Notes under the pieces: model-generated
What the model was told of the DNA's origin: nothing
Database searches by the model: none
The model's input: the letters and a program-made list of their open reading frames with translations, nothing else
NCBI GenBank assembly: GCA_900550145.1
Contig: URRF01000002.1
Coordinates: 5,228 to 69,227 of the forward strand
Length of the DNA stretch: 64,000 nt
From: an uncultured Mollicutes bacterium
Lineage (GTDB): Bacteria > Bacillota_I > Bacilli_A > RF39 > UBA660
Reading direction: 5' to 3'
Shown: positions 42,382 through 64,000 of the stretch, one piece after another
Numbering within the stretch: the stretch's first letter is position 1
How the letters are laid out: every line of letters begins with the position of its first letter
Program-made: the position numbers and the translations under genes

Positions 42382-42414
42382 AAAAAGAGTGCATTTATAA
42401 AATGCATTCTTTTA
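42381..42414. terminator. bidirectional terminator between the remnant ORF (+) and rpsD (-)
   Basis: GAGTGCATTT-ataa-AAATGCATTC hairpin flanked by A6 and T4. Confidence 0.6.
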
Positions 42415-44994: not shown

Positions 44995-45010
44995 TTTAGA
45001 ATTTTTTTAT
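44986..45010 (+). terminator. rho-independent terminator of ezrA
   Basis: TTCTAAAT-ga-TTTAGAA plus T7. Confidence 0.65.
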
Positions 45011-45038
45011 ACAAATAAAATATAATTTATTAGGTGGT

Positions 45039-45875
45039 TTGATGAAAAAGAAAATAGAATATATTTTAATGTTAATTCTTTTTGCATTAAGTTTAATTTA
45101 TACAAATTCAGCAACAAATATAATAAAAAAAGAAGATCCAATAATGAAAAGTATTATGAAAAATAAAAATGCATATAAAATAGAAAGTGTTAATGCAAAA
45201 ATAGAAAATGATACAATTACTCCTGGTGTAAATGGTTGCGAAGTTGATATAAATAAAAGTTACCAAAATATGAAAAAAATAAACGAATATACTGATAAAA
45301 TGCTTAAATATAAAGATTTAATACCAGAAATAACAATTAGTAATGTATATAATAAATATATAACAAATGGAAATGATACAAAAAGAGAAGTTTCAATAAT
45401 TGTAAACATAGATGAAAAAATAGATGAAGTAGTTACTATGGCAAATGATAACAAAATAAAAATAAATATGTTCCTAGATAGTGAAATGCTAAAAAATGGA
45501 CCAATTAAAATAGAAAAAACTTATATTCATATATATAACGGAGGAGTTAATAACAATTACGATGATATAACTATTGAATGGATGAATGACATAATAGAAG
45601 ATAACTATAATGAATCAAAATACTGTATAAATAAAAACAAAAACGATAATAATTTAATGATATGTGCAAGAAATAAAATGCATACGATAAATCCAAACTT
45701 AATAGTAATGCATTCTAATTTATACAATATTAAATCATTAATAACAAATGGAAGTATAATATATTTTGATAAAAACAATATAAATAATATAAAAAGTATC
45801 TCTAATTATATATTATCAAAGGGTTATAAGATAGTATTCCTAGATGAACTTTTAAATGAAAAAACTTGTAAATAG
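45039..45875 (+). CDS. secreted Asn/Lys-rich protein (hypothetical)
   Basis: Signal peptide; no clear catalytic motif. Confidence 0.35.
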   Translation: MMKKKIEYILMLILFALSLIYTNSATNIIKKEDPIMKSIMKNKNAYKIESVNAKIENDTITPGVNGCEVDINKSYQNMKKINEYTDKMLKYKDLIPEITISNVYNKYITNGNDTKREVSIIVNIDEKIDEVVTMANDNKIKINMFLDSEMLKNGPIKIEKTYIHIYNGGVNNNYDDITIEWMNDIIEDNYNESKYCINKNKNDNNLMICARNKMHTINPNLIVMHSNLYNIKSLITNGSIIYFDKNNINNIKSISNYILSKGYKIVFLDELLNEKTCK

Positions 45876-45883
45876 CAGAAATG

Positions 45884-45912
45884 AAGATTGAATAATCAAT
45901 CTTTTATTTTTT
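45884..45912 (+). terminator. rho-independent terminator
   Basis: AAGATTGA-ataa-TCAATCTT plus T-run. Confidence 0.65.
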
Positions 45913-46033
45913 ATAATTTACAACTTTTTTACACCCATATATTAAACATAAATATTACTACAATTGATTTTTATCTTTTTTTTTGCTATAATGCTTACGC
46001 ATTGTCTTTTTAATTTGGAAAGAAGGTTATAAA

Positions 46034-47677: not shown

Positions 47678-47910
47678 ACTCTTTTTTATTCTCCAAAAAA
47701 AGAACAAGAAAGACTGCAAATGATTACAAAGGTAAACCAATAAACTTTGATTTAATTGATTATAAACTAAATGATAGTTCTCATAATATGAGAGTATTCA
47801 AATAAAACAAATTTAATAATTTCACATCGAAGCTTTATTAAAGCCCTTCATTTAATCAAAAAAACTCTATTCTTTACAAATATGAGGAAAGATGCTGATG
47901 TATTTGGAAC

Positions 47911-48711
47911 TTACTTTTTAACACTACAAAAGAATATATGGTAAACAATTTTTATCCAACCGTTAATAGATTCCATAGCACCATTTTCAGTTGGAGAACC
48001 TGGCTTAGAAACAGAATGTATGATATTATATAGGTATAAAGATTCATTGAAACTTTTAGAGCAGTACACGGAACCTTGGTCTGAGTGGATGATCATTTCA
48101 AGGTCTGTGTACTTTTTATTTTTTTCTTCAATAAGCATAGACATAGCAATAAGATAAGCATCAGGATTGCCTTTTTTATTTGATAAATAGTAAGCAACTA
48201 TTTCGTTATTAAATAAGTCCATATAAAGTGTAAGCTCATAATAATGTTTATTTGCCAAAAAAGCAGTCATATCAGTAACAATAAGCTGAAAAGGCCTTAA
48301 AGGATTTAATTCAGCTAAAATGTAATTAAGAAAGTTTTTAAGCTCACGATTTACTTTTTTACCAAACCTTTTAAAATGTTTAGAAGCAGATTTAATATTA
48401 AGAAATTTACATATTTTGTGAGCATAATTATCAGAGTAAACGATACCGTTATCTAATCTAATTTTAGCATTTAACCAGCGATAGCCATGAGAAGGATATC
48501 TCTTATGATATTCCTCAAATTCTCTGCAAGCATAAGATCTACTTAATTCTCTTTGAGAAGGATTGTTTCTTCTACCTAACCATTTATAAAAACCAGAACG
48601 GTTAATACTCATTTCTTTACACAAAGCATTGATAGAATATTTATTAGATAATTCCAAAATTACTTCATATTTTTTTTGGAGGAAGTAACGAATACCTTTT
48701 TTCCGTACCAC
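47911..48711 (-). CDS. IS3-family transposase OrfB (DDE integrase core)
   Basis: HTH (SINALCKEMSINRSGFYKW); DDE residues in IVTDMT, HSDQGSVY, ESINGWIK. Confidence 0.85.
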   Translation of the reverse strand: MVRKKGIRYFLQKKYEVILELSNKYSINALCKEMSINRSGFYKWLGRRNNPSQRELSRSYACREFEEYHKRYPSHGYRWLNAKIRLDNGIVYSDNYAHKICKFLNIKSASKHFKRFGKKVNRELKNFLNYILAELNPLRPFQLIVTDMTAFLANKHYYELTLYMDLFNNEIVAYYLSNKKGNPDAYLIAMSMLIEEKNKKYTDLEMIIHSDQGSVYCSKSFNESLYLYNIIHSVSKPGSPTENGAMESINGWIKIVYHIFFCSVKK

Positions 48712-48846
48712 CTCCTTTCACAGTGTAAGCTTTTTTTAATCTAGCAATCTCAATATCCTTTTTCATAATAATATTTTTAAGTTCATCTTTGTTAAGGTCG
48801 TCATAATTAATATCATTGTCATTATTAACAGGATTAAAATCATAAA

Positions 48847-49113
48847 CTATTTCAGTGACATGGTCAAACAGTGAGGATTTTTATTGTAAGAAGTAATCCA
48901 TTTTTCTAATATTTTAATAGGGATATTATATTCATTAGCAGTTTTCAATGTTGAAAAATGATTAATGCAAATATTTTCACAAATTTTCTTTTTAAGTTCA
49001 CGACTATGTAGCATATTTAATTCCTCCTTATTGTCTAAAAATGCAGTATTTTCTTGCATAAATTGTCCACTATTTATTTTTTTATTCTTCTCTTTATAAT
49101 TTTCTTTAGACAT
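48847..49113 (-). CDS. IS3-family OrfA, N-terminal part (reading frame shifts near 48850-48870)
   Basis: The expected OrfA C-terminal leucine-zipper region (…DDLNKDELKNIIMKKDIEIARLKKAYTVKGGG) is found in another frame between 48712 and 48846. Confidence 0.55.
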   Translation of the reverse strand: MSKENYKEKNKKINSGQFMQENTAFLDNKEELNMLHSRELKKKICENICINHFSTLKTANEYNIPIKILEKWITSYNKNPHCLTMSLK

Positions 49114-49234
49114 ATATATATTACACCTTTCTTTATTTTACTTATAATAAGTGTAATATTTTTATATGTCCTTTTCAATGTAACTTTGTTGCACTTCAGA
49201 AAAAAATTTTCCATTTTTTAAAAATTTGACAAAA

Positions 49235-49263
49235 CATAATAAAAATGCTAGAATATGACCTAA
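49235..49263 (+). promoter_or_regulatory. sigma-A type promoter for the acyl-CoA synthetase gene
   Basis: TTGACA, 17-nt spacer, TAGAAT. Confidence 0.5.
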
Positions 49264-49280
49264 AAAAAGGGGGATTTTAA

Positions 49281-51146
49281 ATGAATACTAAAGATTTAAA
49301 ATTATTAAAACAAAAGTTACAAACATTAAATGAATTAGAAACAAAAGAAAGAGATAAATATTTAAGAGATATTGCACTAGGAAAAATATATGGACCACAA
49401 ACAAATTATCCATCAATCGATAAATCATGGTTAAAATATTATCCAGAATCTGCTATTGATGAAGAAATACCACAAATGAAAGCATATGACTATGTACATG
49501 AGAATAATAAACATAATTTAGATGATATTTGTTTATCATATTTAGGTAATAATATACCTTATAAAGAATTATTTAAAAATATAGAAATGGTTGCTAAATC
49601 ATTTAAAGAATTAGGCATTAAAAAAGGCGATATTGTTACTATGGCAATGGCAACAACACCTGAAATGGTATATATTTTATATGCTTTAAATAGAATAGGT
49701 GCATGTGTTAATGCAATAGATCCAAGATTAAAACAAGAGGAAATAAAACAAAAAATAAATGATTCAAAATCAAAAATGTTTATTGGATTAGACATGGCTG
49801 TAGAAAAAATATATGATATAAAAGATGAAACTACTATAAAAGAAATTGTTAGTGTTTCTCCATTCCAATCCGCATCACCAATAATAAAGCTTTTAACAAA
49901 ATTTAAAAGAAATAAAAGAAATGATATTAAATCATGGGATGAGTTTATATTAAATGGCCAAAAATATAATGGATTAATAGATGAAAAGTTTACTACTAAT
50001 GAGCCAGTAATTATTTTATATACAGGTGGAACTACAGGGGAACCAAAAGGAGTTACATTAACAAATGAAAATTTAAATACAATGGCTATGACACAAATAA
50101 TTTCAGAATTTAATTTAAAAAGACAAGATTTATTTTTAAATTTTTTGCCACCATTTTCTGCATATTCAATTGTTAATGCGATTCATGATCCATTGGTTCT
50201 TGGCTTTAAAACAATATTAGTACCAAAGTTTGAAGCAAAAGATTTCCCTAGATTAATGGCAAAATATAAGCCAAACCACGTTCTAAGTGGCCCTATTTTA
50301 TGGGAATACATGATGAAAGATAAAAAGTATTCTAATACAGATTTATCTAATTTAAAATCACCAATTTCAGGTGGTGATGCATTATCTGTTGAAAAAGAAA
50401 CAGAAATAAATAAATATCTAAAAGATAGAGGATGTAAGTATAAATTACAACAAGGTTATGGAATGACCGAAGTTTCTGCAGCAGCATGTTATTCTATGGA
50501 AAAATCTTATTCACTTGGAAGTGTTGGAATTCCTTACGTAAAAAATAATGTTGCTATTGTAGATTCAGATAATGAACTAGAAACAAATCAAATTGGAGAA
50601 ATAAAAATATCCACACCAACTATGATGAAGGGATATTATAATAACGAAAGGGCTACAAATGAAATCATAAAAGTTGGTTTAGATGGAAAAAGATGGATTG
50701 AAACAGGAGATTTAGGTTATATTGACAAATCAGGAAGAGTTTATGTTATTGGAAGAAAAAAACGTATGATTGTTAGATCAGGTAATAAATTATTTCCAAG
50801 TAATATAGAAAACCTATTAGTTTCTATGCAAGAAATATCACAGTGTTCTATAGTTGGAATGCCAGATGAAAAAGAAAAAACTGTTCCAGTCGCACATATT
50901 GTATTATCTGATAATTGTAAAAATATATCAAAAGAAAATCTAAAAGAACAAATAGAAAAATTAATTTCTAGTAGTTTTCCAGAATTTAATATTCCAAAAA
51001 AATATATTTTTAGAGATGAATTACCTTTAACAGGTATGTCAAAAATAGATTTCAAACAATTAGAATTAGAAAGCTTAGAATTTATTGATAATAAAAGTGA
51101 TTTAATTGTTTTGAATGAAGAAGAAAAAAATTTAATTAAAAAATAA
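49281..51146 (+). CDS. AMP-forming acyl-CoA synthetase / fatty-acid CoA ligase family enzyme
   Basis: AMP-binding motif ILYTGGTTGEPKGV; GYGMTE; C-terminal lid domain; 621 aa. Confidence 0.8.
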   Translation: MNTKDLKLLKQKLQTLNELETKERDKYLRDIALGKIYGPQTNYPSIDKSWLKYYPESAIDEEIPQMKAYDYVHENNKHNLDDICLSYLGNNIPYKELFKNIEMVAKSFKELGIKKGDIVTMAMATTPEMVYILYALNRIGACVNAIDPRLKQEEIKQKINDSKSKMFIGLDMAVEKIYDIKDETTIKEIVSVSPFQSASPIIKLLTKFKRNKRNDIKSWDEFILNGQKYNGLIDEKFTTNEPVIILYTGGTTGEPKGVTLTNENLNTMAMTQIISEFNLKRQDLFLNFLPPFSAYSIVNAIHDPLVLGFKTILVPKFEAKDFPRLMAKYKPNHVLSGPILWEYMMKDKKYSNTDLSNLKSPISGGDALSVEKETEINKYLKDRGCKYKLQQGYGMTEVSAAACYSMEKSYSLGSVGIPYVKNNVAIVDSDNELETNQIGEIKISTPTMMKGYYNNERATNEIIKVGLDGKRWIETGDLGYIDKSGRVYVIGRKKRMIVRSGNKLFPSNIENLLVSMQEISQCSIVGMPDEKEKTVPVAHIVLSDNCKNISKENLKEQIEKLISSSFPEFNIPKKYIFRDELPLTGMSKIDFKQLELESLEFIDNKSDLIVLNEEEKNLIKK

Positions 51147-51201
51147 GGATTATATTTTATAAAATATAGTCCTTTTGTGATATACTTATGTAGGTGGTAG
51201 T

Positions 51202-53403
51202 ATGTCAGAACAAAATATAGTTGTATCAATAATTTCTTTAATAAACATTATAATATTAATGTTTGTTTTCTTTGGTAAAGAACATATAAAAACTGTTGAA
51301 ACAAATCTTTATCAAGCATTACTTGTAAATAGTTTTATTACACCAGTTTTAGAAATCATATGTTACTTTACTGTAAAATTTGGATTAAAACATTTTTCAT
51401 TTACATATGCAATATTAAATAAATTAATATTAATATCATATGTAACATGGATATTGTTATTTTTGCTTTACGTTATAACAATTCTTTTAAATATTTCAAA
51501 ACAAAAATTCAGAAAATTCTTATATATATACTTAGGAATTGGTTTACTAATAATAACTCTAATTATAATAAACAAATTAGAATTTAAAACAATAGATAAC
51601 CTAATAATACCTAGTGGTTTACCATCAGTAATTGTATACTTAACAGCTGGAATATCAGATTTTATAATGATTATATTACTATTATTTAATATAAAAAAAG
51701 CAACAAGTAAAAAACTAATACCATTATACACTATGTTAGCTTTTGGTATTATGGCAATGATATTTCAAAGCACAAATCCACAATACTTTTTACTTACATC
51801 AGTATTAATTTATACAACTATTATTATGTATTTCACAATAGAAAATCCAGATTTAAAAATGATAAGTGAATTAAATATGGCAAAAGAACACGCAGAAAAA
51901 GCAAATAGAGCAAAAAGCGATTTTTTAAGTAGTATGAGTCATGAAATAAGGACACCACTTAATGCAATAGTCGGGTTATCAGAAGATATAGAAGGAAGAG
52001 AAGATTGCCCTAATTCTATTAAAGATGATTTAAGTGATATTGTATCCGCATCACATACACTTCTTGAAATAGTTGGTAATATAATGGATATTAATAAGAT
52101 TGAAAGCAATAAAGTAGAAATAATTGAAATACCTTATGATTTCAAAACAGAACTTGAAACCTTATGTAGAGTAAATAAGATAAGAATTAAAGATAAACCA
52201 ATTGATTTTAGCGTAGATATCGCACCAGATATACCATATGAATTATTAGGAGATAAACCACATATTAAACAAATTATTAACAACCTAGTTTCTAATGCTA
52301 TAAAATATACAAATAGTGGGTTTGTAAAAGTAAGTGCAAAATGCATAAATAAAGATAATATATCAACAATAATACTTACTGTACATGATTCAGGAATTGG
52401 TATCAAAGAAGAAAATATAAAAAAATTATTTACTAAATTTGAACGATTAGATGTAGAAAAAAATACAACAACAGAAGGTACAGGACTAGGACTTGCAATA
52501 ACTAAAAAATTAGTTGAACTTATGGGTGGGAAAATAAATGTGTCATCACAATATGGAAGTGGTTCTATATTTATGGTTACTATTCCACAGAAAATAAGTA
52601 AAATTAATGAGGAATTAACAAATACGCAAAAATTAAATTTAGGAATAAATGTTAAGAATGTAGATTGTAGTAATAAATCTATTCTGGTTGTTGATGATAA
52701 CAAATTAAATATAAAAGTAGCAAGAAGAAGTATAGAAGCACTTGGGTTTAAAAATATAGATGAATGTTATAATGGACAAGAATGTTTAGACAAAATAAAA
52801 AATGGTAATTACTATGATGTGATTCTTATGGATATAATGATGCCTATTATGAATGGAGAAAAATGTATACAAGAATTAAAACAGATACCTAATTTTGATA
52901 CACCAGTTATTGCACTTACAGCAGATGCAGTAGCTGGTTCAGAAGAAAAATATAAGTCCGAAGGATTTATAGATTACATAGCAAAACCATTTAGTAAAGA
53001 CCAAATAAAAGAAAAACTGGATAACATATTAACAAATCAAACTCCTACTAACGAAAAATACTTAGAAGAAAATAACATAGATTATAAAAAAGGAATAGAA
53101 TTATTCGGAAGTATAGAAATGTATAAAGAAATGTTAAAAGAATGGTATAAAACAATAAATAACAAATGGGAAAAAATAGTTACATATAAAAATAATAAAG
53201 ATATGACTAACTATAGTATAGAAGTGCATTCATTAAAAAGTGATTCAAAATATTTTGGATTTACTAAATTAATAGAATTATCATTAAATCATGAACTAAA
53301 AAGTAAAGAGAATGATATAGAATATGTAAATAATAATTTTAATGAGTTAGAGATTGAATATAGGAGAATTATGAATATAGTAAATAACTATTTAAATAAA
53401 TGA
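51202..53403 (+). CDS. hybrid sensor histidine kinase (multi-TM sensor, HisKA, HATPase, REC, HPt)
   Basis: About 6 N-terminal TM helices; H-box [11 protein letters not shown]; G-boxes [18 protein letters not shown]; [13 protein letters not shown]...[10 protein letters not shown]; C-terminal HPt (HSLKSD). Confidence 0.85.
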
Positions 53404-53440
53404 AGTGATAAAGTAATTTTTTTGTTGAATTGAAATAAAA
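53300..53440. repeat. direct repeat copy A (3' end of hybrid kinase 1 plus about 37 nt downstream)
   Basis: About 140 bp, about 98% identical to 61627-61768. Confidence 0.8.
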
Positions 53441-53475
53441 TTATAAATTAAAATTAAAAATTTCTTTTTTGTTTT

Positions 53476-53503
53476 TTGACAAATATATAAAAATATGTAT
53501 AAT
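53476..53503 (+). promoter_or_regulatory. sigma-A type promoter for the acyltransferase gene
   Basis: TTGACA, 16-nt spacer, TG-TATAAT. Confidence 0.55.
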
Positions 53504-53511
53504 ACATATCA

Positions 53512-54411
53512 ATGAAAGGGGATTTTTATATGAATAAAGAAGAATTAATTATTTATCTAAAAAACAAAAGAGAAACATTATTAGGTATAAAATTTAGAAA
53601 TATAATTCATCCAATACTTTTAAAAATTATGGAAAAAATGAGAAATTATAAATTAGAACCTAGATTAGATACAGAAAAAAATTTAGAATTATTAAGAGAA
53701 GAACTAAAAAATGGACCTGTTATTTATGCTTTTAATCATTCTAACATGCATGATGTTCCAACAGCAGGAGAAATTATAAAGGAACATAGTTATTTACTTG
53801 CAAGTGATGAAATAAGAGGAAAAATACCCGGAATGTTATTTGAATTAATGGGTGTTGTATGGACAAATAGATTTAAAGAACCATCAAAACACACTGAATT
53901 ATCACCTTTTGATCATATGTTAAAATTATTAAATGAAGGAGAATCAATAAAAACATTTCCAGAAAGAACATGGAATTTAAGCGAAAATTCATTAGTATAT
54001 CCATTTAAATGGGGAAATGTTAAAATGGCACAATGTAGTGGTAGACCTATTATACCAATAGTTATGGAATATGATTATAAGAACAATATATGCAACTATA
54101 GTATCGGTGAACCAATTCATGTTAAAAAAACAGATGATTTAGAAGAAACTAATAATAAATTAAGAGATGCACTTGCAACAATGAGATATAAAATAATTGA
54201 AACTAAGGGAATTTATGATAGAGAAACAGCTAAAAAAGAGTTTGATGAATATAAAAAACAAGTATTAGAAGAATTTCCTTTTGATGAAGAAATGGAAAAA
54301 ACAACAATTTATAGAAGATATGCTACAAATGAAGAAGTATTTGCACATCTTAACAATATTCGTCCTAATTTAGATAATGCATATTTATTTGGAAAAAGAA
54401 AAACGAAATAA
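53512..54411 (+). CDS. PlsC-like (lysophospholipid) acyltransferase
   Basis: H(X)4D motif FNHSNMHD; FPERT (FPEGTR-like) motif. Confidence 0.65.
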   Translation: MKGDFYMNKEELIIYLKNKRETLLGIKFRNIIHPILLKIMEKMRNYKLEPRLDTEKNLELLREELKNGPVIYAFNHSNMHDVPTAGEIIKEHSYLLASDEIRGKIPGMLFELMGVVWTNRFKEPSKHTELSPFDHMLKLLNEGESIKTFPERTWNLSENSLVYPFKWGNVKMAQCSGRPIIPIVMEYDYKNNICNYSIGEPIHVKKTDDLEETNNKLRDALATMRYKIIETKGIYDRETAKKEFDEYKKQVLEEFPFDEEMEKTTIYRRYATNEEVFAHLNNIRPNLDNAYLFGKRKTK

Positions 54412-54494
54412 CTACTTATAACTTTTTAAGTAGTTTTTATCTTGTTCTTTAAAAAAACATTGATATAATAAAAAAAAGATAGGAGTGATTAAAA

Positions 54495-56750
54495 ATGAGC
54501 AATTTATATTTCCCAATATGTGCCTTATTTATCTCATCATTATTATTAATTATATTTTTTTCTAAAGAAAGAATAAATATTTTAGATACAAAGCTATTTT
54601 CATTTTTATTAATTGTTAATTTTCTTGATTCATTACTTAATACCATAATAATATATTTAGGTTATACCAAACCAACAGGAATTACTTTAATAAAAATTTT
54701 AAATAGAATTGATTTTCCTTTATATATTTTATGGGCATGGCTATTTTTCTTATATATTTTTCATATAAGTACAGAAAAGAAAAAAACTCATAATTTATTT
54801 AAAATTATATTTAATATTAGTTTAGTTATTAATATTATTGCTATTTTATTTTCTATAATTTTACCTTTTGAAATACAAAATTCAAATAATATTATGTATG
54901 CTTATGGAAATAGTGTAAATGTTTTATATATAATGTGTGGTATATATATGTTTCTAACTTTATTTTGTGTTTTATTAAATATAAAAAGATTATTAAATAA
55001 AAAATATGCACCCGTTTATGTATTAATATTGTTTGCATTTATCATTGGGTATATTAGATTAATTAATCCAAGCTTAATACTCATCTCGGCTGTTATCTCT
55101 TATATTAACTTAATTCTTTATTTTACAATAGAAAATCCAGATATGAAAATGATAAGTGAGTTAAATGTTGCTAAGAATAATGCAGAAAAAGCAAATAGGG
55201 CAAAGAGTGATTTTTTATCAAGTATGTCACATGAAATAAGGACACCACTTAATGCAATTGTAGGTTTATCAGAAGATATAAAAGAAAGAGGAACATGTCC
55301 TGATAATATGAAGGAAGATTTAAATGATATTGTTTCTGCTTCTCATACTTTACTTGAAATAGTAGGTAATATAATGGATATTAATAAAATAGAAAGTGAT
55401 AAGATTAAGATTACAGAAATGCCATATAATTTTAGGGAAGAATTAGAAACTTTATGTAGAGTAAATAAAGTAAGAATAGGTGATAAACAAATTGATTTTA
55501 GAGTAAATATCGCACCTGATATTCCATATGAGTTATTAGGAGATAAACCTCATATCAAACAAGTAATTAATAATCTTGTATCTAACGCGATTAAGTATAC
55601 TAATGAAGGATTTATAGAAGTAAACGCTAAATGTATAAATAAAGATAATATATCAACAATAATCCTTACTGTACAAGATTCAGGTATGGGTATTAAAGAA
55701 GAGAATATAAAAAAATTATTTACAAAGTTTGAAAGATTAGATGTAGAAAGAAATACTACTGCAGAAGGAACAGGACTAGGTCTTGCAATAACTAAGAAAT
55801 TAGTTGAATTAATGGGTGGTAAAATAAATGTATCATCACAATATGGAACTGGTTCAATGTTTATGGTACAAATACCACAAAAGATAAGTAAGATGAATAG
55901 TGATTTAACAAATACACAAAAATTAAATCTAGGTTTAAATATTAAAAATATAGATTGTAGTAATAAATCTATCCTTGTTGTTGATGATAATAAACTAAAT
56001 ATCAAGGTAGCAAGAAGAAACATAGAGGCACTAGGATTTAAAACAATAGATGAATGCTATAATGGTAGTGAATGTTTAGAAAAGATAAAAAATGGTAATA
56101 GGTATGATTTAATATTAATGGATATAATGATGCCTGTTATGAGTGGAGAAACTTGTATAAAAGAATTAAAACAAATACCTAATTTTAAAATACCAGTAAT
56201 TGCATTAACTGCGGATGCAATATCTGGTGCAGAAGAAAAATATAAATCTATTGGATTTATTGACTATTTATCAAAACCATTTACTAAAGACCAAATAAAA
56301 GAAAAAATATCAAATTTATTTGATACTTCGGAACATGTTAATGTGAATGTAGAGGTACGTGCAGAGAATACTGAAGTTATATCAAGTGATAATTCTAAGG
56401 AAGATTATTTGAAAGAAAATAATATAGATTATAATAAGGGAATAGAATTATTTGGTAGTATGGATATGTATAATAGTATGTTATCTGATTGGTATAAAGG
56501 AATAAATGATAAATGGAATAAGATAATTAGTTATAAGAATAATAATGATATGACTAATTATGCAATAGAAGTACACTCATTAAAAAGTGACGCTAAATAC
56601 TTTGGATTTACTAAGTTAGCAGAGTTATCATTAAATCATGAATTAAAAAGTAAAGATAATGATATAGATTATGTTAATAGTAATTTTAGTGAGTTAGAGT
56701 TAGAATATAAAAGAATTCTAAATATAGTAGATAATTATTTAAATAAGTAA
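54495..56750 (+). CDS. hybrid sensor histidine kinase, paralog of 51202-53403
   Basis: Same domain order. HisKA through HPt is strongly similar to kinase 1. The N-terminal TM sensor is more diverged. Confidence 0.85.
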
Positions 56751-56780
56751 AGGTATACTTTTTAAGGTATGCCTTTTTAA
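56748..56780 (+). terminator. rho-independent terminator of hybrid kinase 2
   Basis: AAAGGTATAC-tttttaag-GTATGCCTTT (10 bp with one G-U pair) plus TTTTT. Confidence 0.6.
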
Positions 56781-56864
56781 TTATTTTTAAAAATTTATTA
56801 AATTGTTGTTGACAAAATTATTTAGAGATGATACGTTAAACTCAAATTAATTAAGAGGTTTTGT

Positions 56865-56987
56865 ATGAATAGGTTAAACATTGATAAAATTAACAAATGG
56901 AAAATGAAAGGTTTTATAAAAGAAATTTATCTTTTTTGCGCTCTTAGTCTGCTGTTTGTACAAAATAATAAGGAAATTGGTGTCTAA
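56865..56987 (+). CDS. 40-codon small ORF with RBS, followed by a hairpin plus T8 (possible leader or small hydrophobic peptide)
   Basis: aagagg RBS; MNRLNIDKINKWKMKGFIKEIYLFCALSLLFVQNNKEIGV. The hairpin TTTGCATT-tag-AATGCCAA plus T8 lies at 56991-57028. Confidence 0.25.
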   Translation: MNRLNIDKINKWKMKGFIKEIYLFCALSLLFVQNNKEIGV

Positions 56988-57075
56988 AAATGTTTTGCAT
57001 TTAGAATGCCAATTTTTTTTGATTTTTATAAGAGAAACACAAAAATTTAATTGAATTAAATAGGGGATAACAAAA

Positions 57076-58494
57076 ATGAAAAAAAATATAATGATGGTAG
57101 GTGTAGGTCCACACGCTAAAAGAATATACTTTAATTATTTTAAAAATCATAATATATGCCCTAAAATTATTGTAGATTTAGAATCGAATGAAGTTGAAAT
57201 AAAAAACTATTTAAAAATAAATGGATATGTAAATACTGTACTATGGTTATTGCCTGATAAATATAAAGATTATGAAAGAATGCCATCGAAACAATATAAT
57301 GAATTGTTGAATTTATGTAGAAAACATAAAATAAATTATATAATATCTTCAACAGAACCAAAAGCACATAACATGTATCTTTTGTTTGCACTTGAAAACA
57401 ATATTAATATATTATCCGACAAACCAATTACTGTTGTTAAAGGTATGAATTGTAAAAAAAATATTGCAAAAGTAAAAAAACAATATTATGACTTATTAAG
57501 TATTTATAATAGTGATAAATGCAAATGTAACATTATGTGTCAACGTCAATATCATAAGGGTTATATTTATATAAAGCAACTATTAAAAGAAATAGTTTCT
57601 AAATATGGTATTCCAATAACATATATAGATATTTACCATTGCGATGGAAATTGGGAAATGTTACACGATTTAGAAAAAGAGAATCATCCATATAAATATG
57701 GGTATGGTAAGTTATATCATAGTGGGTATCATTTTATTGATTTATTGGCAGAATTAATAAAATTGAATGATACGATTGATGAAAGCAAAAAAATTACAAA
57801 GTGTAAAATATATGGAGATACATTTACACCAAATGATGAAAAAATGGTTTTTAGTAAAGCTGATTATATAAATATATTTGGTTTAGATGCATCAAAAGAA
57901 GTATTAGAGGTTGAAGATAAGAATTATAATGAGTATGGAGAAAAAAATTTCTATGGTAATTTGAATTTTTACAATAAAACAGGCGAAATGATAACAAAAG
58001 CAAATATTAATCTTTTACATTATGGTTTTTCAAGGAGGGGATGGATTAAATCAAAGGATTATTATAAAAACAATGGTAGAATTAGGCATGAAAGAATAAA
58101 TATTCATGTAGGACCACTAATGAACATACAAATACATAGTTATCAATCTAAAGAGATTAAGGATAGGACAAATTCAATAAATGAAATTATGACTGGTGGT
58201 TTAGAGCATTTTGATATTGATATTTATCGAAATGTTGATTTAATTGGTGGTGTACCTTTTCAAAGGATAAAGTTAATGGATTTATATAATGATGATGTTT
58301 TAAAGAACAAATTTATTGGTTATAACGAATATAGTAGAGAAGAATTTATTAGTTCTTTTTTGAACGATAAAAAAACAAAAAGTGATCTTAAAAGTCATAA
58401 ATTAGCAATGGATATTTTAATAAATGCCTCATTAGTATCTATAAAAAAAGCCAAAGTTATAAAATTTGATGTCGTGAATTATATGGGAGAATGA
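57076..58494 (+). CDS. Gfo/Idh/MocA-like NAD(P)-dependent oxidoreductase N-terminal domain with long C-terminal region
   Basis: IMMVGVGPHAKRIY Rossmann start; EPKAHNMYLLFALENNINILSDKPIT resembles the EKP motif region. Confidence 0.4.
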   Translation: MKKNIMMVGVGPHAKRIYFNYFKNHNICPKIIVDLESNEVEIKNYLKINGYVNTVLWLLPDKYKDYERMPSKQYNELLNLCRKHKINYIISSTEPKAHNMYLLFALENNINILSDKPITVVKGMNCKKNIAKVKKQYYDLLSIYNSDKCKCNIMCQRQYHKGYIYIKQLLKEIVSKYGIPITYIDIYHCDGNWEMLHDLEKENHPYKYGYGKLYHSGYHFIDLLAELIKLNDTIDESKKITKCKIYGDTFTPNDEKMVFSKADYINIFGLDASKEVLEVEDKNYNEYGEKNFYGNLNFYNKTGEMITKANINLLHYGFSRRGWIKSKDYYKNNGRIRHERINIHVGPLMNIQIHSYQSKEIKDRTNSINEIMTGGLEHFDIDIYRNVDLIGGVPFQRIKLMDLYNDDVLKNKFIGYNEYSREEFISSFLNDKKTKSDLKSHKLAMDILINASLVSIKKAKVIKFDVVNYMGE

Positions 58495-59576
58495 TTATGA
58501 AGTTGATAGCAGAAATAAATGGTGATAAAAATTTCAATTTAAGTAAAAATAAATTAAACTCAACAGCATCAATAGTTTTTATTGTATTTAATGGACTTGG
58601 TGAAATAGGTTTAATAAAAGAAATAAATTTACATTTACCTAATATTGAAGTTGAAAATAACTATAATGAAAGTACTATTTTGGAGTGCTTTGAAAAAAAA
58701 TATAATATAAGGATAGACATAATAAGTGAAATTGGGCAAATAAGAGAAAAAAATAATAATAAAATTTTAAATTCAGATGTCTATCTTGCAAAATATGATT
58801 GTGATGATAAAAATGAATCAAAACTACATTGGAAATCATTAAGTAATATTAATGTTGACTTAAAATGTTTAATTAAACCTAGAGATATTGAAATATTAAA
58901 ATATTTTCAAAGCAGTGATAATGATGTGTGGTATAAATTGTATAGCAAATATATAGATAAAGATTTTAAAAATTGGAATCATTATTATATAACTAAGATG
59001 AAATTAAAAAGAAAATTTAATAAGCAAGTTATTAAACATTATGATAAAAGGAAGCCAGTTCTTGAATGTGGATGTGGTTTCGGTAAAACTTCAATTTTTT
59101 ATGCATCATTAGGAATGAATTCATATGCGATGGATTTAGAACAAACAATGGTTGATAAAACAAAAGAACTTTCAAGAAAGATAAATAAAAATAATGAAGT
59201 AAAATGTTTATGCGGTGATATATTTAATATACCATTTAAAGATAAATTTTTTAGTGTTACACATAGTAGTGGTGTTTTAGAGCACTTTCAAGATGATGAA
59301 ATTGTTAAAATAATTAATGAAGAATTGAGAGTTTCGGATTATATGGTTTTTAGTGTTCCAACAAAATACTTTGAGAAAAAAATGTTGGGAAATGAAAGAT
59401 TTATGTCAAAAAAAGAATGGAAAAAAATAATAAGTAGATGCAATGCAAAGATAGTAAAAATAACTGGATATCATTATAAAACATTTATAAATAGGATGCT
59501 TGATTGCATAAAAAAACCAAGGTATTTTTTGAAACCTATTGCAATGTATACATTTGTTATAAAGGAGGATAAGTAA
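58491..59576 (+). CDS. class I SAM-dependent methyltransferase with about 180-aa N-terminal extension
   Basis: Motif I VLECGCGFGKT; motif post-I AMDLE; LCGDIFNIPF. Confidence 0.6.
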   Translation: MIMKLIAEINGDKNFNLSKNKLNSTASIVFIVFNGLGEIGLIKEINLHLPNIEVENNYNESTILECFEKKYNIRIDIISEIGQIREKNNNKILNSDVYLAKYDCDDKNESKLHWKSLSNINVDLKCLIKPRDIEILKYFQSSDNDVWYKLYSKYIDKDFKNWNHYYITKMKLKRKFNKQVIKHYDKRKPVLECGCGFGKTSIFYASLGMNSYAMDLEQTMVDKTKELSRKINKNNEVKCLCGDIFNIPFKDKFFSVTHSSGVLEHFQDDEIVKIINEELRVSDYMVFSVPTKYFEKKMLGNERFMSKKEWKKIISRCNAKIVKITGYHYKTFINRMLDCIKKPRYFLKPIAMYTFVIKEDK

Positions 59577-60097
59577 TGATTTATATTGTAAGACATGGGC
59601 AAACTAAATATAATGTAGAAGGAAGATATGGAGGGAGAATAGATATACCACTTAATAACAATGGTATAAAATCGGCAAAAGAATTACGTGATAAGTTTAA
59701 AAATGTCAAATTTGATTATGTTATATGTAGTCCATTAATTAGAACACAGCAAACAGCAAAAATCATAACAAATAAAAGTTTGATTTTGGATGAAAGATTG
59801 ATTGAAAGAGATAATGGCGAACTAGAAGGAAAATTAAAAAGTGAAATACAAGAACTACCTGATTTTAATGATCCGAATGAAAATAAATACAATATAGAGT
59901 CTATTACTAATTTTAGAAATAGAATTGAAGATTTTTTTTGTGAAATTGATGAAAAATATAAAGGCAAAAATGTATTAATAGTAACTCATGCTGGAGTAGG
60001 AATATATGCTAGATGTCATTATGAAGGAGAACCTCAAAATGGGGATTATCTTATTTATAAAATGAAAAATTGTGAAGTACTTGAATATGAAAATTGA
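59576..60097 (+). CDS. histidine phosphatase family protein (phosphoglycerate mutase-like/CobC-like)
   Basis: RHG motif IYIVRHGQTKYN; second His in VTHAG. Confidence 0.75.
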   Translation: MIYIVRHGQTKYNVEGRYGGRIDIPLNNNGIKSAKELRDKFKNVKFDYVICSPLIRTQQTAKIITNKSLILDERLIERDNGELEGKLKSEIQELPDFNDPNENKYNIESITNFRNRIEDFFCEIDEKYKGKNVLIVTHAGVGIYARCHYEGEPQNGDYLIYKMKNCEVLEYEN

Positions 60098-60108
60098 TGA
60101 GGTAAATT

Positions 60109-60957
60109 ATGGGAGAAAATAAAAAATATGTGATAGAAAATGGAGAACATAAAGGGGAAGTAATTGTTTCGTGGATAATAACACATTCTTGTCCAGAAAA
60201 ATGTGCTTATTGCATAAGTCCAATAAAAAGTAAGGAAATACAGTCGTTTGAAGAACATTTAAAAATTCAAAATCAAATGATTAATACAGGATTGACTAAA
60301 TGTCGATATATTGGTGGAGAACCATTTACTGTAAATCATTTAGTGCAATTAGTTAAAGAAGCCTCAATACGAGGAGTAGATACTAGAATAAGTACTAATG
60401 GAATTCTTTTGACAAAGGAAAAACTTCTATTTTTAAGAGATTATATAAATTCTTTTGCATTTCCATTTGAGTCAGTTGATGATAAACTTAATTATAACAT
60501 TCGGGGAACATTAAATCATAGAGAAATTGTTACCGATAGAATTATTATGGTAAAAGAAATAACTGATGCGGGTGTATTAATTAATACATGTGTTCATAAA
60601 GAAAATATTAATTCGTTATATGAACTTGGTGACTATTTACAAAAATTAGATGTAGATCATTGGAAGTTAAGAAAATTTTATTCAGGGAGTGGACGTGGTG
60701 CTGTTCCTAATAAAGAACGTTTCGAAATCTCAAATGAAGAATTTTTTGATATTGTTGATTTACTTAAAAGAGAATATCCAAAAATGCAAATAGATGGAAG
60801 ACTTCCATCCAAACTTCAAACACGACTTATGTTATCTCCGCAAGGAGAATTATATAGAATGATAGGGGAAAATGATGATGAAAATCGTGTATATGGTAAT
60901 ATTTTAACAAAAAAGATTAATATAGGTGCGATTTATAAAAAAGATAAATGTAATTAA
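60109..60957 (+). CDS. radical SAM enzyme
   Basis: CxxxCxxC (HSCPEKCAYC) near the N-terminus; GGEP motif (IGGEPF). Confidence 0.7.
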   Translation: MGENKKYVIENGEHKGEVIVSWIITHSCPEKCAYCISPIKSKEIQSFEEHLKIQNQMINTGLTKCRYIGGEPFTVNHLVQLVKEASIRGVDTRISTNGILLTKEKLLFLRDYINSFAFPFESVDDKLNYNIRGTLNHREIVTDRIIMVKEITDAGVLINTCVHKENINSLYELGDYLQKLDVDHWKLRKFYSGSGRGAVPNKERFEISNEEFFDIVDLLKREYPKMQIDGRLPSKLQTRLMLSPQGELYRMIGENDDENRVYGNILTKKINIGAIYKKDKCN

Positions 60958-60966
60958 GGAGAAGTT

Positions 60967-61635
60967 ATGACTATAGAATCAAAATCATGGAATTGGAAAA
61001 TTGTTAATGCAAATAAAGAAAGAGAATGGCTATTACCATCTCAAGAAGTTTACTATTTAATAGATAGATGGAAAACACTTAATAAAAAAAGTGTTTTAGA
61101 TTTGGGATGTGGTATTGGTAGACATGCTCTATTGTTTTCAAAAAGAGGTTTTAATACTTATGGACTAGATTTGTCAGAAGATGCAATAATGAAGGCTAAA
61201 GCATATTCCGACATAAACAATGCAAAAATAGAGTATGTTGTTGCGGATATGCTAAATTTACCATATGATAGTCAGACAATGGATGCTGTTTTTGCTTATT
61301 ATTCAATTTCACACACCGATACGAGTGGCGTAATAAGAATTTTAGAAGAAATTCGTAGAATTCTTACAATTAATGGAGAATGTTATTTAACTTTTGGTTC
61401 TAAGGATTCGTGGGGGTATAAGGAAGAATGGCCAATTGTAGATGATAACACAAAAATAAGGATTGAAGATGGTCCGGATAATGGCGTTCCTCATTTCTTT
61501 GCTGATAGTGAGCTTATTTATAATTTGTTTGAAAAATATGAAATTATAGATTTGAGACAAATTCAACGTATTGAAAATGAAAATGATATAATAAAGAGTC
61601 ATCATCATTATCATGTGTTGGCAAAGAAAAAGTAA
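60967..61635 (+). CDS. class I SAM-dependent methyltransferase
   Basis: VLDLGCGIGRHAL motif I; DLSEDAI; VADMLNLPY. Confidence 0.75.
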   Translation: MTIESKSWNWKIVNANKEREWLLPSQEVYYLIDRWKTLNKKSVLDLGCGIGRHALLFSKRGFNTYGLDLSEDAIMKAKAYSDINNAKIEYVVADMLNLPYDSQTMDAVFAYYSISHTDTSGVIRILEEIRRILTINGECYLTFGSKDSWGYKEEWPIVDDNTKIRIEDGPDNGVPHFFADSELIYNLFEKYEIIDLRQIQRIENENDIIKSHHHYHVLAKKK

Positions 61636-61768
61636 AGAGAATGATATAGAATATGTAAATAATAATTTTAATGAGTTAGAGATTGAATATAGGAGAATTA
61701 TGAATATAGTAAATAACTATTTAAATAAATGAAGTGATAAAGTAGAATTTTTTTGTTGAATTGAATAA
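61627..61768. repeat. direct repeat copy B (duplicate of the 3' end of hybrid kinase 1), begins at the methyltransferase stop codon
   Basis: Near-identical to 53300-53440, with two small indels near the end. Confidence 0.8.
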
Positions 61769-61799
61769 AACAGTTGACAATATAATATATTTATAATAT

Positions 61800-61920
61800 A
61801 ATTAGACACGTAAGAAAAAGGAAAGCGATGTATTCATCCACCTGAGAGCGAGTAGTTCTAGGTATAAAGCCATAATATGTTTATGAGTTTTTGAGTGGAT
61901 ACATTGTATCTACTTTTTTA
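61800..61920 (+). promoter_or_regulatory. infC leader with terminator-like hairpin (possible L20-dependent attenuator)
   Basis: GAGTGGATAC-attg-TATCTACT hairpin followed by TTTTTT just upstream of the infC RBS. Upstream alternative pairing segments (CATCCAC / GTGGATAC). Confidence 0.35.
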
Positions 61921-61937
61921 AATTGGAGGTGCTTACT

Positions 61938-62462
61938 ATAGCAAATAAAGAACGTGATTTACCAATTAATGATCAAATAAGATGTGGATCTATGTTGGTA
62001 ATTGGACCAAAGGGAGAACAATTAGGTGTAAAGACAAAATCTGATGCTTTAACATTAGCAGATTATGCTGGATTTGATCTTGTACTTATTAATGATTCGG
62101 CTAATCCACCAGTTTGTAAATTAATGGATTATAAGAAATATAAGTATGAGAAGAAGAAGAAGCAAAAGGAAAATGATAAGAAGCAAAGGGAAACTAGTTT
62201 TGAGATTAAGGAATATAGGTTATCTGTAACAATAGATAAACATGATTTTGAGACGAAGTTAAGGAATGCAGAAAAGCAATTGCAAAAAGGAAATAAGGTT
62301 AAAGCAACTGTAAGATTTAAGGGTAGACAACTAGCACATACTGAGTTAGGTGAGGAAGTACTTAATAGGTTTAAAGAGGGTTTAAATGAAGTTAGTGTTG
62401 TTGAAATGCCACCTAAGTTTGAATTTAAAGCTATGTATATGATTTTAGCACCAAAAAAGTAA
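61938..62462 (+). CDS. infC: translation initiation factor IF-3, probable non-AUG (ATA) start
   Basis: IF3 N- and C-domains (PPVCKLMDYKKYKYE...). No ATG in frame. GGAGGTG RBS 61925-61931, then in-frame ATA at 61938. The ORF track started at TTG 61923. Confidence 0.8.
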   Translation: MANKERDLPINDQIRCGSMLVIGPKGEQLGVKTKSDALTLADYAGFDLVLINDSANPPVCKLMDYKKYKYEKKKKQKENDKKQRETSFEIKEYRLSVTIDKHDFETKLRNAEKQLQKGNKVKATVRFKGRQLAHTELGEEVLNRFKEGLNEVSVVEMPPKFEFKAMYMILAPKK

Positions 62463-62474
62463 GGAGGAAATAAT

Positions 62475-62669
62475 ATGCCAAAATTAAAAACACACAAAGG
62501 AACAAAAAAAGTATTAAAGGTTCGTAAAGGTGGAACTATATCAATGGGAAGACCTGGTAGTAGACATAATACAGGTAAGAAAAATACAAGTGCAAATAGA
62601 AAAAATAGAAAAGGATCAGTTTTGAGTAAATCAGATTCAAAGAGATTAAAAACTGTAAAATTTAATTAA
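62475..62669 (+). CDS. rpmI: 50S ribosomal protein L35
   Basis: MPKLKTHKGTKK... L35 signature; 64 aa. Confidence 0.85.
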   Translation: MPKLKTHKGTKKVLKVRKGGTISMGRPGSRHNTGKKNTSANRKNRKGSVLSKSDSKRLKTVKFN

Positions 62670-62680
62670 GGAGGTAAATT

Positions 62681-63211
62681 ATGGCAAGAGTTAAAGGCGG
62701 AACTGTAGCAAGAGCAAGAAGAAAAAAAGTTTTAAAAGAAGCTAGCGGTTACTTTGGTAGTAAACATAGATTATTTAAAACAGCAAAAGAACAATTATTA
62801 CATTCTGGTGTATATGCTTATCGTGATAGAAGACAAAAGAAAAGAGATTTTAGAAAATTATGGATTACAAGAATTAATGCTGCTTGTAGAGAGAATGAAA
62901 TTAGTTATTCTAAGTTTATAGATGGATTAAATAAAGCAGGTTTAACTGTTAATAGAAAGATGTTATCAGAACTTGCAATAGATAATCCAAAGGCATTTAG
63001 CGATTTAGTTATAATTGCTAAGGATGCTTTAAATGGTAAGGAATATAAGCCATCAAAGGTTGTTTTGGAAAGTAAGAAAGATGATAAAAAGATAGTTAAA
63101 GAAACTAAAACAGCAACTAAAAAAGTAGAAGCTAAGGAAGAGAAAACAACAAAAGGTACTACTAAGAAAGCAACTACAAAAAAGGCAACAACTAAGAAAG
63201 AAGAAAAATAG
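62681..63211 (+). CDS. rplT: 50S ribosomal protein L20 with about 58-aa Lys/Thr-rich C-terminal extension
   Basis: [19 protein letters not shown]...[19 protein letters not shown] is L20. It continues into [15 protein letters not shown] repeats (176 aa). Confidence 0.9.
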
Positions 63212-63246
63212 TACTTAGGTACTATTTTATTGTAATAGGGGTCATT

Positions 63247-63888
63247 ATGGATGAACAATTAAAAGAGTTGTTAAAAGATGTTGATGACAAATGTGAGTAC
63301 TCTGATGAAGCGATAGATGTACAAACATTTACAGATATGTTATCTTCATATTTTGTCGACTATAGAATTTTGCTTTATGAAAAAGAGAAAAAAGTTAGGG
63401 ACAGTAAAAGTTTAGAAGATATTTCATTTTATCTTGGAAATGATGTTGAGATATCTTTTGATTATCCTAAATCAAACTTTACGGTAACATATGATAAATA
63501 TAAGAAAACTTTGAATTATAGACATGAAGGAATGAGCGCATTTAAGGCGAAGGCATTTCTTGTTGCAAATTCAAAATTTATTAATAGATCAATGACTGTT
63601 TTAAGAAATGTAGATTCTATGTTAAAGAGTGATATGGCATTATATCGTTTGGAAGAATTGGAACAGGAAGTTGTGTATGGAGATATAAAAATAGTTTTTA
63701 ATATAATCGGACAGTATGCAGTTTATTTTAAGGATAGAAATATTACTAGAGAAAAAAATGTGATAAATTATGTGGATAATATTTTATCTAATATAAGAAT
63801 AAATGTTTCTGATTTGAAACCGGAATTTAAAAAATTATATTTTGAGTTTGATGAAATGTTAGGAGAAAAAGAGTACAAATATAAATAA
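63247..63888 (+). CDS. hypothetical protein
   Basis: 213-aa ORF with RBS. No recognisable motif. Confidence 0.35.
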   Translation: MDEQLKELLKDVDDKCEYSDEAIDVQTFTDMLSSYFVDYRILLYEKEKKVRDSKSLEDISFYLGNDVEISFDYPKSNFTVTYDKYKKTLNYRHEGMSAFKAKAFLVANSKFINRSMTVLRNVDSMLKSDMALYRLEELEQEVVYGDIKIVFNIIGQYAVYFKDRNITREKNVINYVDNILSNIRINVSDLKPEFKKLYFEFDEMLGEKEYKYK

Positions 63889-63893
63889 AATAA

Positions 63894-63921
63894 GGAAAAA
63901 CTTTGGTTTTTCTTTTTTTTC
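63894..63921 (+). terminator. rho-independent terminator
   Basis: GAAAAAC-tttg-GTTTTTC plus T8. Confidence 0.65.
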
Positions 63922-64000
63922 GTGATATAATTTTATTGGTGAATTATAATGCAAGACGTAATAAAAAAAATATATGATTATTCACTCGAAGAGATAATGG

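Follow-up and report, generated by a model that had tools for sequence, protein, structure and literature searches.

The window analysed here, a 64,000-nt stretch of DNA, comes from an abundant, small-genome species of uncultured gut Bacilli, with 25.7% G+C. The locus upstream of infC is built of tandem modules in which an enzyme gene is followed by a hybrid histidine kinase gene: kinase A follows a fatty-acyl ligase, and kinase B (kin2 in the window) an acyltransferase. Its features, in order, are the following.

51202–53403, + strand: kin1, hybrid histidine kinase (HisKA-HATPase-REC-HPt); stop codon at 53401–53403; ArcB model aligned over residues 221–732
53274–53341, + strand: interval of the switch from Locus 1 to Locus 2; 68 nt identical in both loci, overlapping the start of copy A
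53298–53440, + strand: repeat copy A, 143 nt; last 106 nt of kin1 (‘R-type’, end of the HPt domain) plus ~37 nt downstream; 3′ end intact
53476–53503, + strand: promoter of the acyltransferase module, consensus 12/12, directly after copy A
53530–54411, + strand: PlsC-family acyltransferase, 293 aa
54495–56750, + strand: kin2, hybrid histidine kinase, 751 aa; its 3′ end (56645–56752) is a diverged third copy of the repeat
56749–56776, + strand: predicted intrinsic terminator AGGTATACTTTTTAAGGTATGCC after the kin2-type stop (z = -3.4); motif found only in cluster-bearing contigs
57076–61635, + strand: five-gene accessory cluster encoding a 472-aa GFO/IDH/MocA-like protein, a 361-aa methyltransferase, a 173-aa histidine phosphatase, a 282-aa viperin-like radical SAM protein and a 222-aa methyltransferase
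61627–61635, + strand: joint between cluster and relic, G61626 meeting A61627; AAAAAGTAA is a possible microhomology
61627–61770, + strand: repeat copy B, 144 nt; 3′ relic of a hybrid kinase gene, last 106 nt plus 38 nt downstream
61774–61802, + strand: promoter of the infC operon, consensus 12/12, directly after copy B
61929–62462, + strand: infC, forming the conserved right flank; its structured leader contains a terminator-like hairpin (61893–61915)

Gene callers place a 40-aa ORF between kin2 and the cluster.

Copy B as the relic of a kinase gene

As a first-pass annotation of this DNA had described, copies A and B are genuine, near-identical direct repeats of ~140 bp. They are 97.9% identical over 145 aligned columns (BLAST E ~3e-66), with no substitutions and three gap positions, a 2-nt GA insertion and a 1-nt A deletion, both in the non-coding part; the coding portion is identical. 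The kin2 3′ end is 86% identical to copy B over 108 nt. The repeat might in principle have been duplicated or collapsed during assembly, a concern the annotation had raised itself and to which a possible chimeric join inside copy A of the window lends some substance. Both copies, with the same structure and flanks, recur in at least 19 contigs that different studies assembled independently with different assemblers; these contigs exclude an assembly duplication and leave an artefact with practically no probability. No Rfam match was found in copy A, copy B or the infC leader, and both copies fold no better than shuffled sequence (z = 0.13 and 0.47), so a reading of the repeat as a terminator or riboswitch was dropped.

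Copy B is a gene relic. In strains that lack the five-gene cluster, the kinase that immediately precedes infC is intact and the same sequence is its live 3′ end: L089, L093, L097, L098 and L109 have a 747-aa kinase that terminates in the copy B sequence, with infC directly after it. In the window, copy B begins at kinase position -106; the 5′ part of the gene and its reading frame are gone, and the remnant is shifted by +1 relative to the methyltransferase frame. Its far end adjoins the infC promoter, whose TTGACA lies at 61774. The flank is closely conserved, window positions 61627–64000 matching L089 9699–12072 at 99.9% identity. Copy B is also present where copy A is absent (L095 and L110).

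The upstream border of copy B is a single shared joint. Homology ends sharply between 61626 and 61627, and the joint is the same in 22 of 22 cluster-bearing contigs, where it falls at the natural stop codon of the methyltransferase gene (TAA, 61633–61635); copy B supplies the last two codons (lysine) and the stop. The annotation had copy B beginning precisely at that stop: the stop does lie inside the repeat, but homology starts 6 nt upstream. Its view of the repeat as recent stands, since the coding part is identical in the two copies and the relic is almost invariant across the 22 contigs, a strong conservation that reflects the young age of the relic. Truncation of the methyltransferase at the joint was considered and rejected, as the 222-aa protein is full length and its C-terminus, AKKK before the stop, matches the natural end of its homologues (AKKK or AKKR). 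Because these homologues end in A-rich codons, AAAAAGTAA could have been shared between the joined sequences as a microhomology. An A-rich joint at the methyltransferase stop is typical of illegitimate joining.

Strain arrangements and kinase mosaicism

Strain contigs of the same species were found by exact-protein look-up, with flank identities of 98.9–99.9% over window positions 61627–64000. Among strains with 99% identical flanks, at least six arrangements occur between PedC and infC: both kinase modules with the cluster (arrangement 1), both modules without the cluster (2), the acyltransferase-kinase module alone (3), the ligase-kinase module alone (4), the ligase-kinase module with the cluster (5) and a form with truncated kinase A (6). 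The acyltransferase-kinase module is present and the cluster absent in L093 and L098; the cluster is present and the module absent in L092. The module and the cluster vary independently, and therefore the 8.3 kb between the repeats is not one inserted unit. The annotation had proposed a strain comparison for presence or absence of this segment; it yields six arrangements in place of the single unit with constant ends that characterizes a site-specific element. The N-terminal part of kin2 and the acyltransferase gene are 99–100% identical between cluster-bearing and cluster-less strains. Species other than this one (L010 and many others) also have ligase-kinase and acyltransferase-kinase pairs and even both in tandem.

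Where the five-gene cluster is missing, the last kinase extends right up to the infC promoter. The annotation had predicted that recombination between the repeats would place a kinase next to infC, and this form occurs naturally in L090 and L096. The L090 joint carries the indel marker of copy A followed by the copy B/infC context, consistent with a crossover between A and B, and both the L096 kinase and kinase B of L098 switch from kin2-type to R-type in the last 15–20 nt. Few markers separate the readings, and L090, L096 and L098 could be ancestral forms or products of gene conversion instead of deletion products.

The kinase paralogs are block mosaics, in which 100% identical blocks abut blocks of about 67–86% identity (100-nt bins). 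The combinations of blocks differ among kinase A, kinase B (kin2) and the Locus 1 kinase, and they differ between strains; such sharp switches between identical and diverged sequence, in strain-specific combinations, are the pattern of gene conversion. The distant Locus 1 kinase also shares blocks (L102). Calling kinase 2 an old, diverged paralog, as had been done, is too simple, for in other strains kinase A is 99–100% identical to kin2 over ~1.4 kb. The identity of copies A and B, previously ascribed to target duplication, is explained instead by the exchange of sequence blocks between kinase paralogs.

Within the window itself, two loci meet that a 1.22-Mb reference contig has 672 kb apart and in inverted orientation. 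The kin1 gene corresponds to the Locus 1 kinase up to ~53273 and is of Locus 2 type from 53342, so that the switch falls in a shared kinase stretch. The same join was seen in no other contig compared; it must be due to an inversion or to chimeric assembly of the contig. Searching for the exact kin1 protein gave no match, because this kin1 is a hybrid with no counterpart seen outside the window; a contig scan with kin1 returned, among the matches listed, only other species, at no more than 65% identity. Neither the join nor, as a control, the kinase-acyltransferase joint was found in JGI metagenomes, a collection that does not contain the species and whose silence is thus uninformative. Inverted copies of a repeat, for example of rRNA operons, IS elements or paralogs, give rise to symmetric inter-replichore inversions. 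The window resembles them in joining inverted loci 672 kb apart with a switch in a shared kinase stretch, but differs in that the join is seen in one contig only, which may be a chimeric assembly.

Origin of copy B

We consider it probable (about 0.7) that copy B is the non-functional remnant of a sensor-kinase gene's tail, one scar in a reshuffled locus, and no footprint of a mobile element. In the proposed ancestral state, the last kinase would have run to the infC promoter, its final 106 nt and the 38 nt downstream being the sequence of copy B. In a single historical event, that kinase would have been joined, 106 nt short of its stop, to a cassette made up of the 3′ end of a kin2-type kinase, terminator and promoter, and the five genes. 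The joint would lie at an A-rich microhomology coinciding with the methyltransferase stop codon, and the old kinase tail stranded beyond it would be copy B. Copy A would be the live 3′ end of an upstream paralog. The kinase genes of the species appear to swap blocks constantly by gene conversion and crossing-over, which would explain why most share the R-type tail. The repeated kinase sequences would also serve as substrates for RecA-type recombination, by which modules could be deleted or re-added, giving rise to the six strain arrangements.

The most likely route is homology-facilitated illegitimate recombination (HFIR), a RecA-dependent process of naturally competent recipients, with one homologous end in the kinase gene and one illegitimate end. 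HFIR occurs during natural transformation in Acinetobacter baylyi, Streptococcus pneumoniae and Pseudomonas stutzeri, with joints at 3–10 bp of microhomology (PMC6382021). The locus is alike in having one end in a homologous gene, since kin2 is homologous to the resident kinase throughout, and the other end may lie at a short A-rich microhomology; foreign genes would likewise have been added, with a stranded piece of the recipient gene beyond the joint. It differs in that the joint coincides exactly with a stop codon, so that the last inserted gene stays intact. A donor or pre-insertion sequence of the cassette was not found; we therefore infer the direction and order of events, the HFIR route and the microhomology from the product only. 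In other taxa, homologous clusters never adjoin a hybrid kinase, and one lies beside a Mob_Pre relaxase.

The annotation had instead read the whole 8.3 kb (acyltransferase, kin2 and cluster) as one circle, inserted into the kin1 3′ end by a Campbell-type or site-specific event that duplicated ~140 bp of target. Direct repeats do bracket the segment and natural variants with a kinase next to infC do occur, but the acyltransferase-kinase module and the cluster come and go separately (L093, L098, L092 and L089), which largely refutes this model, and we regard it as very unlikely; the tandem of ligase-kinase and acyltransferase-kinase in L010, another species, also speaks against it. The cluster is flanked not by copies A and B but by the kin2 end and copy B, which are 86% identical, and the left end of the acyltransferase module is not copy A but its promoter, which forms this edge in three different contexts. 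The flanks of the cluster are not the reciprocal hybrids of a Campbell event: in 19 contigs the kin2 end is wholly kin2-type and the relic wholly R-type, and in L092 kin2 has an R-type start while the relic lacks a reciprocal kin2-type start. The A-rich joint at the stop codon tells against such an insertion as well. The annotation was right that no integrase is present in or beside the segment, a point that weighs against its own model: Pfam and NCBIfam scans found no tyrosine or serine recombinase among the genes at 53512–61635 and their flanks. The IS3-like genes at 47911–49113, with the rve transposase at 47911–48711, and a Zn-ribbon recombinase fragment (41194–41940) are part of the other locus, where they are conserved in the absence of the segment. 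What endures of the insertion idea is that copy B marks the joining of foreign genes into the 3′ end of a kinase gene.

The cluster may alternatively once have been a module of its own, whose full-length kinase, kinase C, lay after the methyltransferase and before infC. A microhomology-mediated deletion would then have taken out the whole stretch between the methyltransferase stop and a point 106 nt short of the kinase C end. The locus is built of enzyme-then-hybrid-kinase modules, as in many relatives, and the joint at AAAAAGTAA suits such a deletion equally well. We nevertheless regard this history as unlikely, for the 22 cluster-bearing contigs all lack a longer kinase remnant, no homologous cluster elsewhere has a kinase after it, and a live kinase with exactly the same tail already stands at the same position in cluster-less strains. 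A functional role for the 143-bp sequence, as a cis element (terminator, UP element or RNA motif) needed by both downstream promoters, would fit the strong conservation of the relic and the position of each copy immediately 5′ of a perfect consensus promoter (53476 and 61774). Yet 106 of its 143 nt are in-frame kinase coding sequence in copy A, it has neither a significant fold nor an Rfam match, and its conservation is accounted for by the young age of the relic; the same acyltransferase promoter also lies behind PedC or a truncated kinase where the repeat is absent. We judge a cis element very unlikely. It is also quite unlikely that the conserved HPt-encoding tail and the 38 nt after it are a selected portable recombination anchor for swaps of whole modules of signal enzyme and receptor kinase, for docking by infC of accessory cassettes like the viperin-like cluster and perhaps for flips of about half the chromosome between two kinase loci; if true, this would amount to recombinase-free cassette exchange generating signalling types within one gut species.

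Related systems and implications

With copy B read as a stranded kinase tail, the locus invites comparison with elements that insert at gene 3′ ends, such as tRNA and tmRNA islands and prophages with attL and attR. As in these, the 3′ end of a gene is found in duplicate beside accessory genes, and the targeted gene remains intact; the locus differs in lacking an integrase, an excisionase and a short core att site, in that the repeats do not enclose a single unit, and in that the repeat is 143 bp of ordinary paralog homology. Copy B is best annotated as a pseudogene fragment and not as an att site. Recombination among tandem paralogs is exemplified by Helicobacter sabA/sabB/omp27, the staphylococcal lpl clusters and the Neisseria opa/pil loci. 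The likeness to unequal crossing-over and gene conversion in such systems lies in the block mosaics, the homogenised ends and the presence or absence of whole modules within a species. Their units are surface antigens, whereas the units here are signalling modules (an enzyme with a HisKA-REC-HPt kinase), and a paralog 672 kb away also takes part.

The repeat would be an ordinary scar, yet it draws attention to a hypervariable signalling locus of this gut species, in which enzyme-kinase modules and a viperin-like small-molecule cluster appear to come and go purely by kinase-paralog recombination between flanks that are 99% identical. Strain-resolved metagenomics is affected, as contigs break, or may turn chimeric, at these kinases. 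For studies of ligase-kinase and acyltransferase-kinase pairs, the strain variation in module content offers a ready-made comparison set. The exact infC protein occurs in 839 blocks of the collection, and the cluster methyltransferase in 282.

Two repeat copies beside hybrid kinase genes

The near-identical direct repeat reported in the first-pass annotation is real, as established by direct sequence reading and a repeat finder. The stretch that carries it, in a window with a G+C content of 25.7% for which the nearest genomes among the database matches listed are MAGs of uncultured Bacilli from the gut, contains the following features (window coordinates):

49281-51146, fatty-acyl-CoA-ligase-like gene
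51202-53403, kin1, a hybrid histidine kinase with HisKA, HATPase, REC and an HPt-like C-terminus (ArcB model aligned, residues 221-732)
53298-53440, repeat copy A (direct reading, repeat finder)
53530-54411, PlsC-family acyltransferase
54495-56750, kin2, the hybrid kinase after the acyltransferase
57076-61635, five-gene cluster: 472-aa GFO/IDH/MocA-like protein, methyltransferase, histidine phosphatase, radical SAM protein, second methyltransferase
61627-61770, repeat copy B (direct reading, repeat finder)
3' of the cluster, infC, rpmI and rplT

Copies A and B differ by no substitution (97.9% identity in a 145-column alignment; BLAST E about 3e-66); relative to A, copy B has GA inserted and one A missing, both within the non-coding part. 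Copy A comprises the last 106 nt of kin1, a tail termed R-type, and about 37 nt 3' of the gene. Copy B, shifted +1 against the kinase frame, starts 6 nt upstream of the stop codon of a 222-aa methyltransferase (60967-61635), so that its last two lysine codons and TAA lie within the repeat. Each copy is directly followed by a perfect 12-of-12 sigma-70-type promoter, that of the acyltransferase after A (53476-53503) and that of infC after B (61774-61802). The 3' end of kin2 (56645-56752) is another copy of the repeat, the third, with 86% identity to B; a genuine terminator lies after it at 56749-56776.

The infC leader (61803-61928) has a stable fold (z = -2.75) and a terminator-like hairpin at 61893-61915; it reached no Rfam gathering threshold and may be a divergent L20-type leader. 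L20 itself (62681-63211; 176 aa) has a C-terminal extension of about 60 aa and partially matches two NCBIfam models, 'L20/unknown domain fusion' and 'sunset domain variant', below the cut-off of each.

Strain variation and the kinase-gene relic

Exact look-up of the methyltransferase (protein contained in 282 blocks of the collection) returned contigs with the same gene order, six of eight spanning both repeat copies, and look-up of the acyltransferase returned more; an assembly artefact is thereby ruled out. The decisive result for interpreting the repeat is population variation: contigs found by exact infC look-up (839 blocks) are 98.9-99.9% identical to window 61627-64000, yet differ in content between PedC and infC, within the infC locus, here Locus 2.

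Arrangements at Locus 2 (kinases A and B are the ligase-paired and acyltransferase-paired kinases; L-numbers denote compared contigs)
V1: ligase' - kinase A (742 aa) - acyltransferase - kin2 (751 aa) - cluster - relic - infC; L091, L094, L001-L006, L111-L118
V2: ligase' - kinase - infC; L090, L096
V3: ligase' - kinase A (746 aa) - acyltransferase - kinase B (747 aa) - infC; L093, L098
V4: PedC - acyltransferase - kinase B (747 aa) - infC; L089, L097, L109
V5: ligase' - kinase - cluster - relic - infC; L092
V6: ligase' - 111-115-aa kinase stump - acyltransferase - kin2 - cluster - relic - infC; L095, L110

Each of the two, acyltransferase-kinase module and cluster, thus varies independently of the other, so the 8.3-kb interval from A to B is not a single unit. 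The earlier proposal of a Campbell-type or site-specific insertion into the kinase 3' end is not supported in that form; the deletion variants it predicted do exist, as V2, with a kinase adjoining infC. In V2-V4, the infC-adjacent kinase ends in copy B sequence or a recombinant thereof; the 38 nt beyond the gene are also the same and lead to the infC promoter. Window 61627-64000 matches positions 9699-12072 of L089 at 99.9% identity. Cluster-bearing strains retain just the last 106 nt of this kinase gene. Copy B in these strains is a relic, the stranded tail of a kinase gene; since V6 retains it without having copy A, B is independent of A. The joint (…GGCAAAG|AAAAAGTAAAGAG…) is the same in 22/22 cluster-bearing contigs, the relic is almost invariant in them (three alleles, 1-2 SNPs apart), and the terminator after kin2 occurs, among contigs compared, only in cluster-bearing ones, which together point to one historical event. 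The feature is a young gene relic within a modular kinase locus prone to recombination; features of this kind are known, and this one is clearly documented.

In L090, a tail of the 746-aa kinase A type, whose missing GA marks it as copy A, leads into infC context, as expected of an A x B crossover within the final 20 nt of homology. The L096 kinase and L098 kinase B have a kin2-type tail up to the last 15-20 nt, then R-type sequence and infC context, the product expected if the kin2 end had crossed over with the relic and the cluster been lost. Markers are few in all three, for which gene conversion or ancestry are alternatives to crossover. V5 resembles the product of a kinase A x kin2 crossover. 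V4 and V6 arose by illegitimate deletion, and in both the deletion has the acyltransferase promoter as its right edge.

Origin of the cluster joint

The methyltransferase at the joint is full length and its end, HHHYHVLAKKK*, agrees with the natural ends of homologues (AKKK*, AKKR*); the end of the cluster thus coincides exactly with a natural stop codon. The two joining partners may have had as many as 9 nt (AAAAAGTAA) in common. In other taxa, homologous clusters are related sets with NUDIX, methyltransferase, histidine phosphatase, methyltransferase, radical SAM, acetate-kinase-like and 472-aa proteins; none of those examined (among them L119, L120 and L124) adjoins a hybrid kinase, and one adjoins a Mob_Pre relaxase. 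These findings fit the entry of an accessory cassette by homology-facilitated illegitimate recombination, one end lying within kinase homology and the other being illegitimate (PMC6382021). The main rival is that a former third kinase was lost by microhomology deletion, which would produce an identical scar. The cluster may encode a nucleotide-modifying or defence-like pathway. Its radical SAM protein matches prokaryotic viperin models (PADLOC pVip, 5.7e-26; NCBIfam, 75 bits, under the 180 cut-off).

Kinase exchange and the Locus 1-Locus 2 join

Identity tables in 100-nt bins reveal that the cytoplasmic parts of all compared kinases are block mosaics, with 100% identity blocks beside 67-86% blocks in combinations that differ by strain. 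The 746-aa kinase A of L093 is 99-100% identical to kin2 across about 1.4 kb, although its tail is R-type, and the 747-aa kinase B of L089 joins a kin2 N-terminus to a 3' half resembling the 742-aa kinase A. Because this mosaicism accompanies an R-type tail common to kinase A (742- and 746-aa forms), kinase B (747 aa) and the relic, the identity of copies A and B reflects ongoing paralog exchange; target duplication as its cause is rejected on these grounds.

Pairs of an acyl-CoA-ligase-like gene and a hybrid HisKA-REC-HPt kinase, and likewise of a PlsC-family acyltransferase and a hybrid kinase, recur in many related uncultured Bacilli (window 49281-56750; L009-L080). Within the species, the ligase (about 70% nt identity) and kinase sensor parts are far more diverged than the flanks (99%). 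Speculatively, these may be signal-synthase/receptor pairs of strain-specific types, comparable to LuxM/LuxN or HdtS.

Exact look-up of the window ligase gene placed window 39281-53399 in a different locus, Locus 1 (rpsD, EzrA, RNase J, IS3-like element, ligase, 733-aa kinase, YceG, SpoIIGA, sigE), which on the 1.22-Mb contig CBFFOQ010008661.1 (GCA_965643355.1) is separated from the infC locus by about 672 kb and is on the opposite strand (L101 vs L094). By SNP typing, the switch to Locus 2 falls inside copy A, in a 68-nt identical stretch (53274-53341) that is shared by two kinase paralogs and overlaps the copy's start; native Locus 1 kinases differ in their last 60 nt (67% identity) and are followed by YceG. 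Look-ups of methyltransferase, infC, ligase and acyltransferase found no such join in the other contigs examined, and exact look-up of the hybrid kin1 protein found no record. Two JGI metagenome scans had no match either, in a collection from which the species is absent. Either an inversion mediated by the kinases, covering about half the chromosome, or contig chimerism explains the join; the repeat finding is independent of it, because native V1 contigs carry both copies. Ends of metagenome contigs fall within kinase genes in L007, L008, L104, L105, L107 and L108 (that of L105 at window position 52477, in a block common to paralogs), and kinase paralogs evidently break short-read assemblies.

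The IS3-like pair (47911-49113, - strand; 266-aa rve-domain protein and 88-aa ORF), between RNase J and the ligase gene, keeps its position in every Locus 1 contig; in L103 and L108 it is degraded. A ~9 kb segment (32928-41936) with an aldehyde-dehydrogenase/nucleotidyltransferase fusion, ArgRS, SDR, phosphodiesterase and a terminal serine-recombinase Zn-ribbon fragment (41194-41940) is present in the window, L099, L100 and L105, and missing in L101, L102 and L104.
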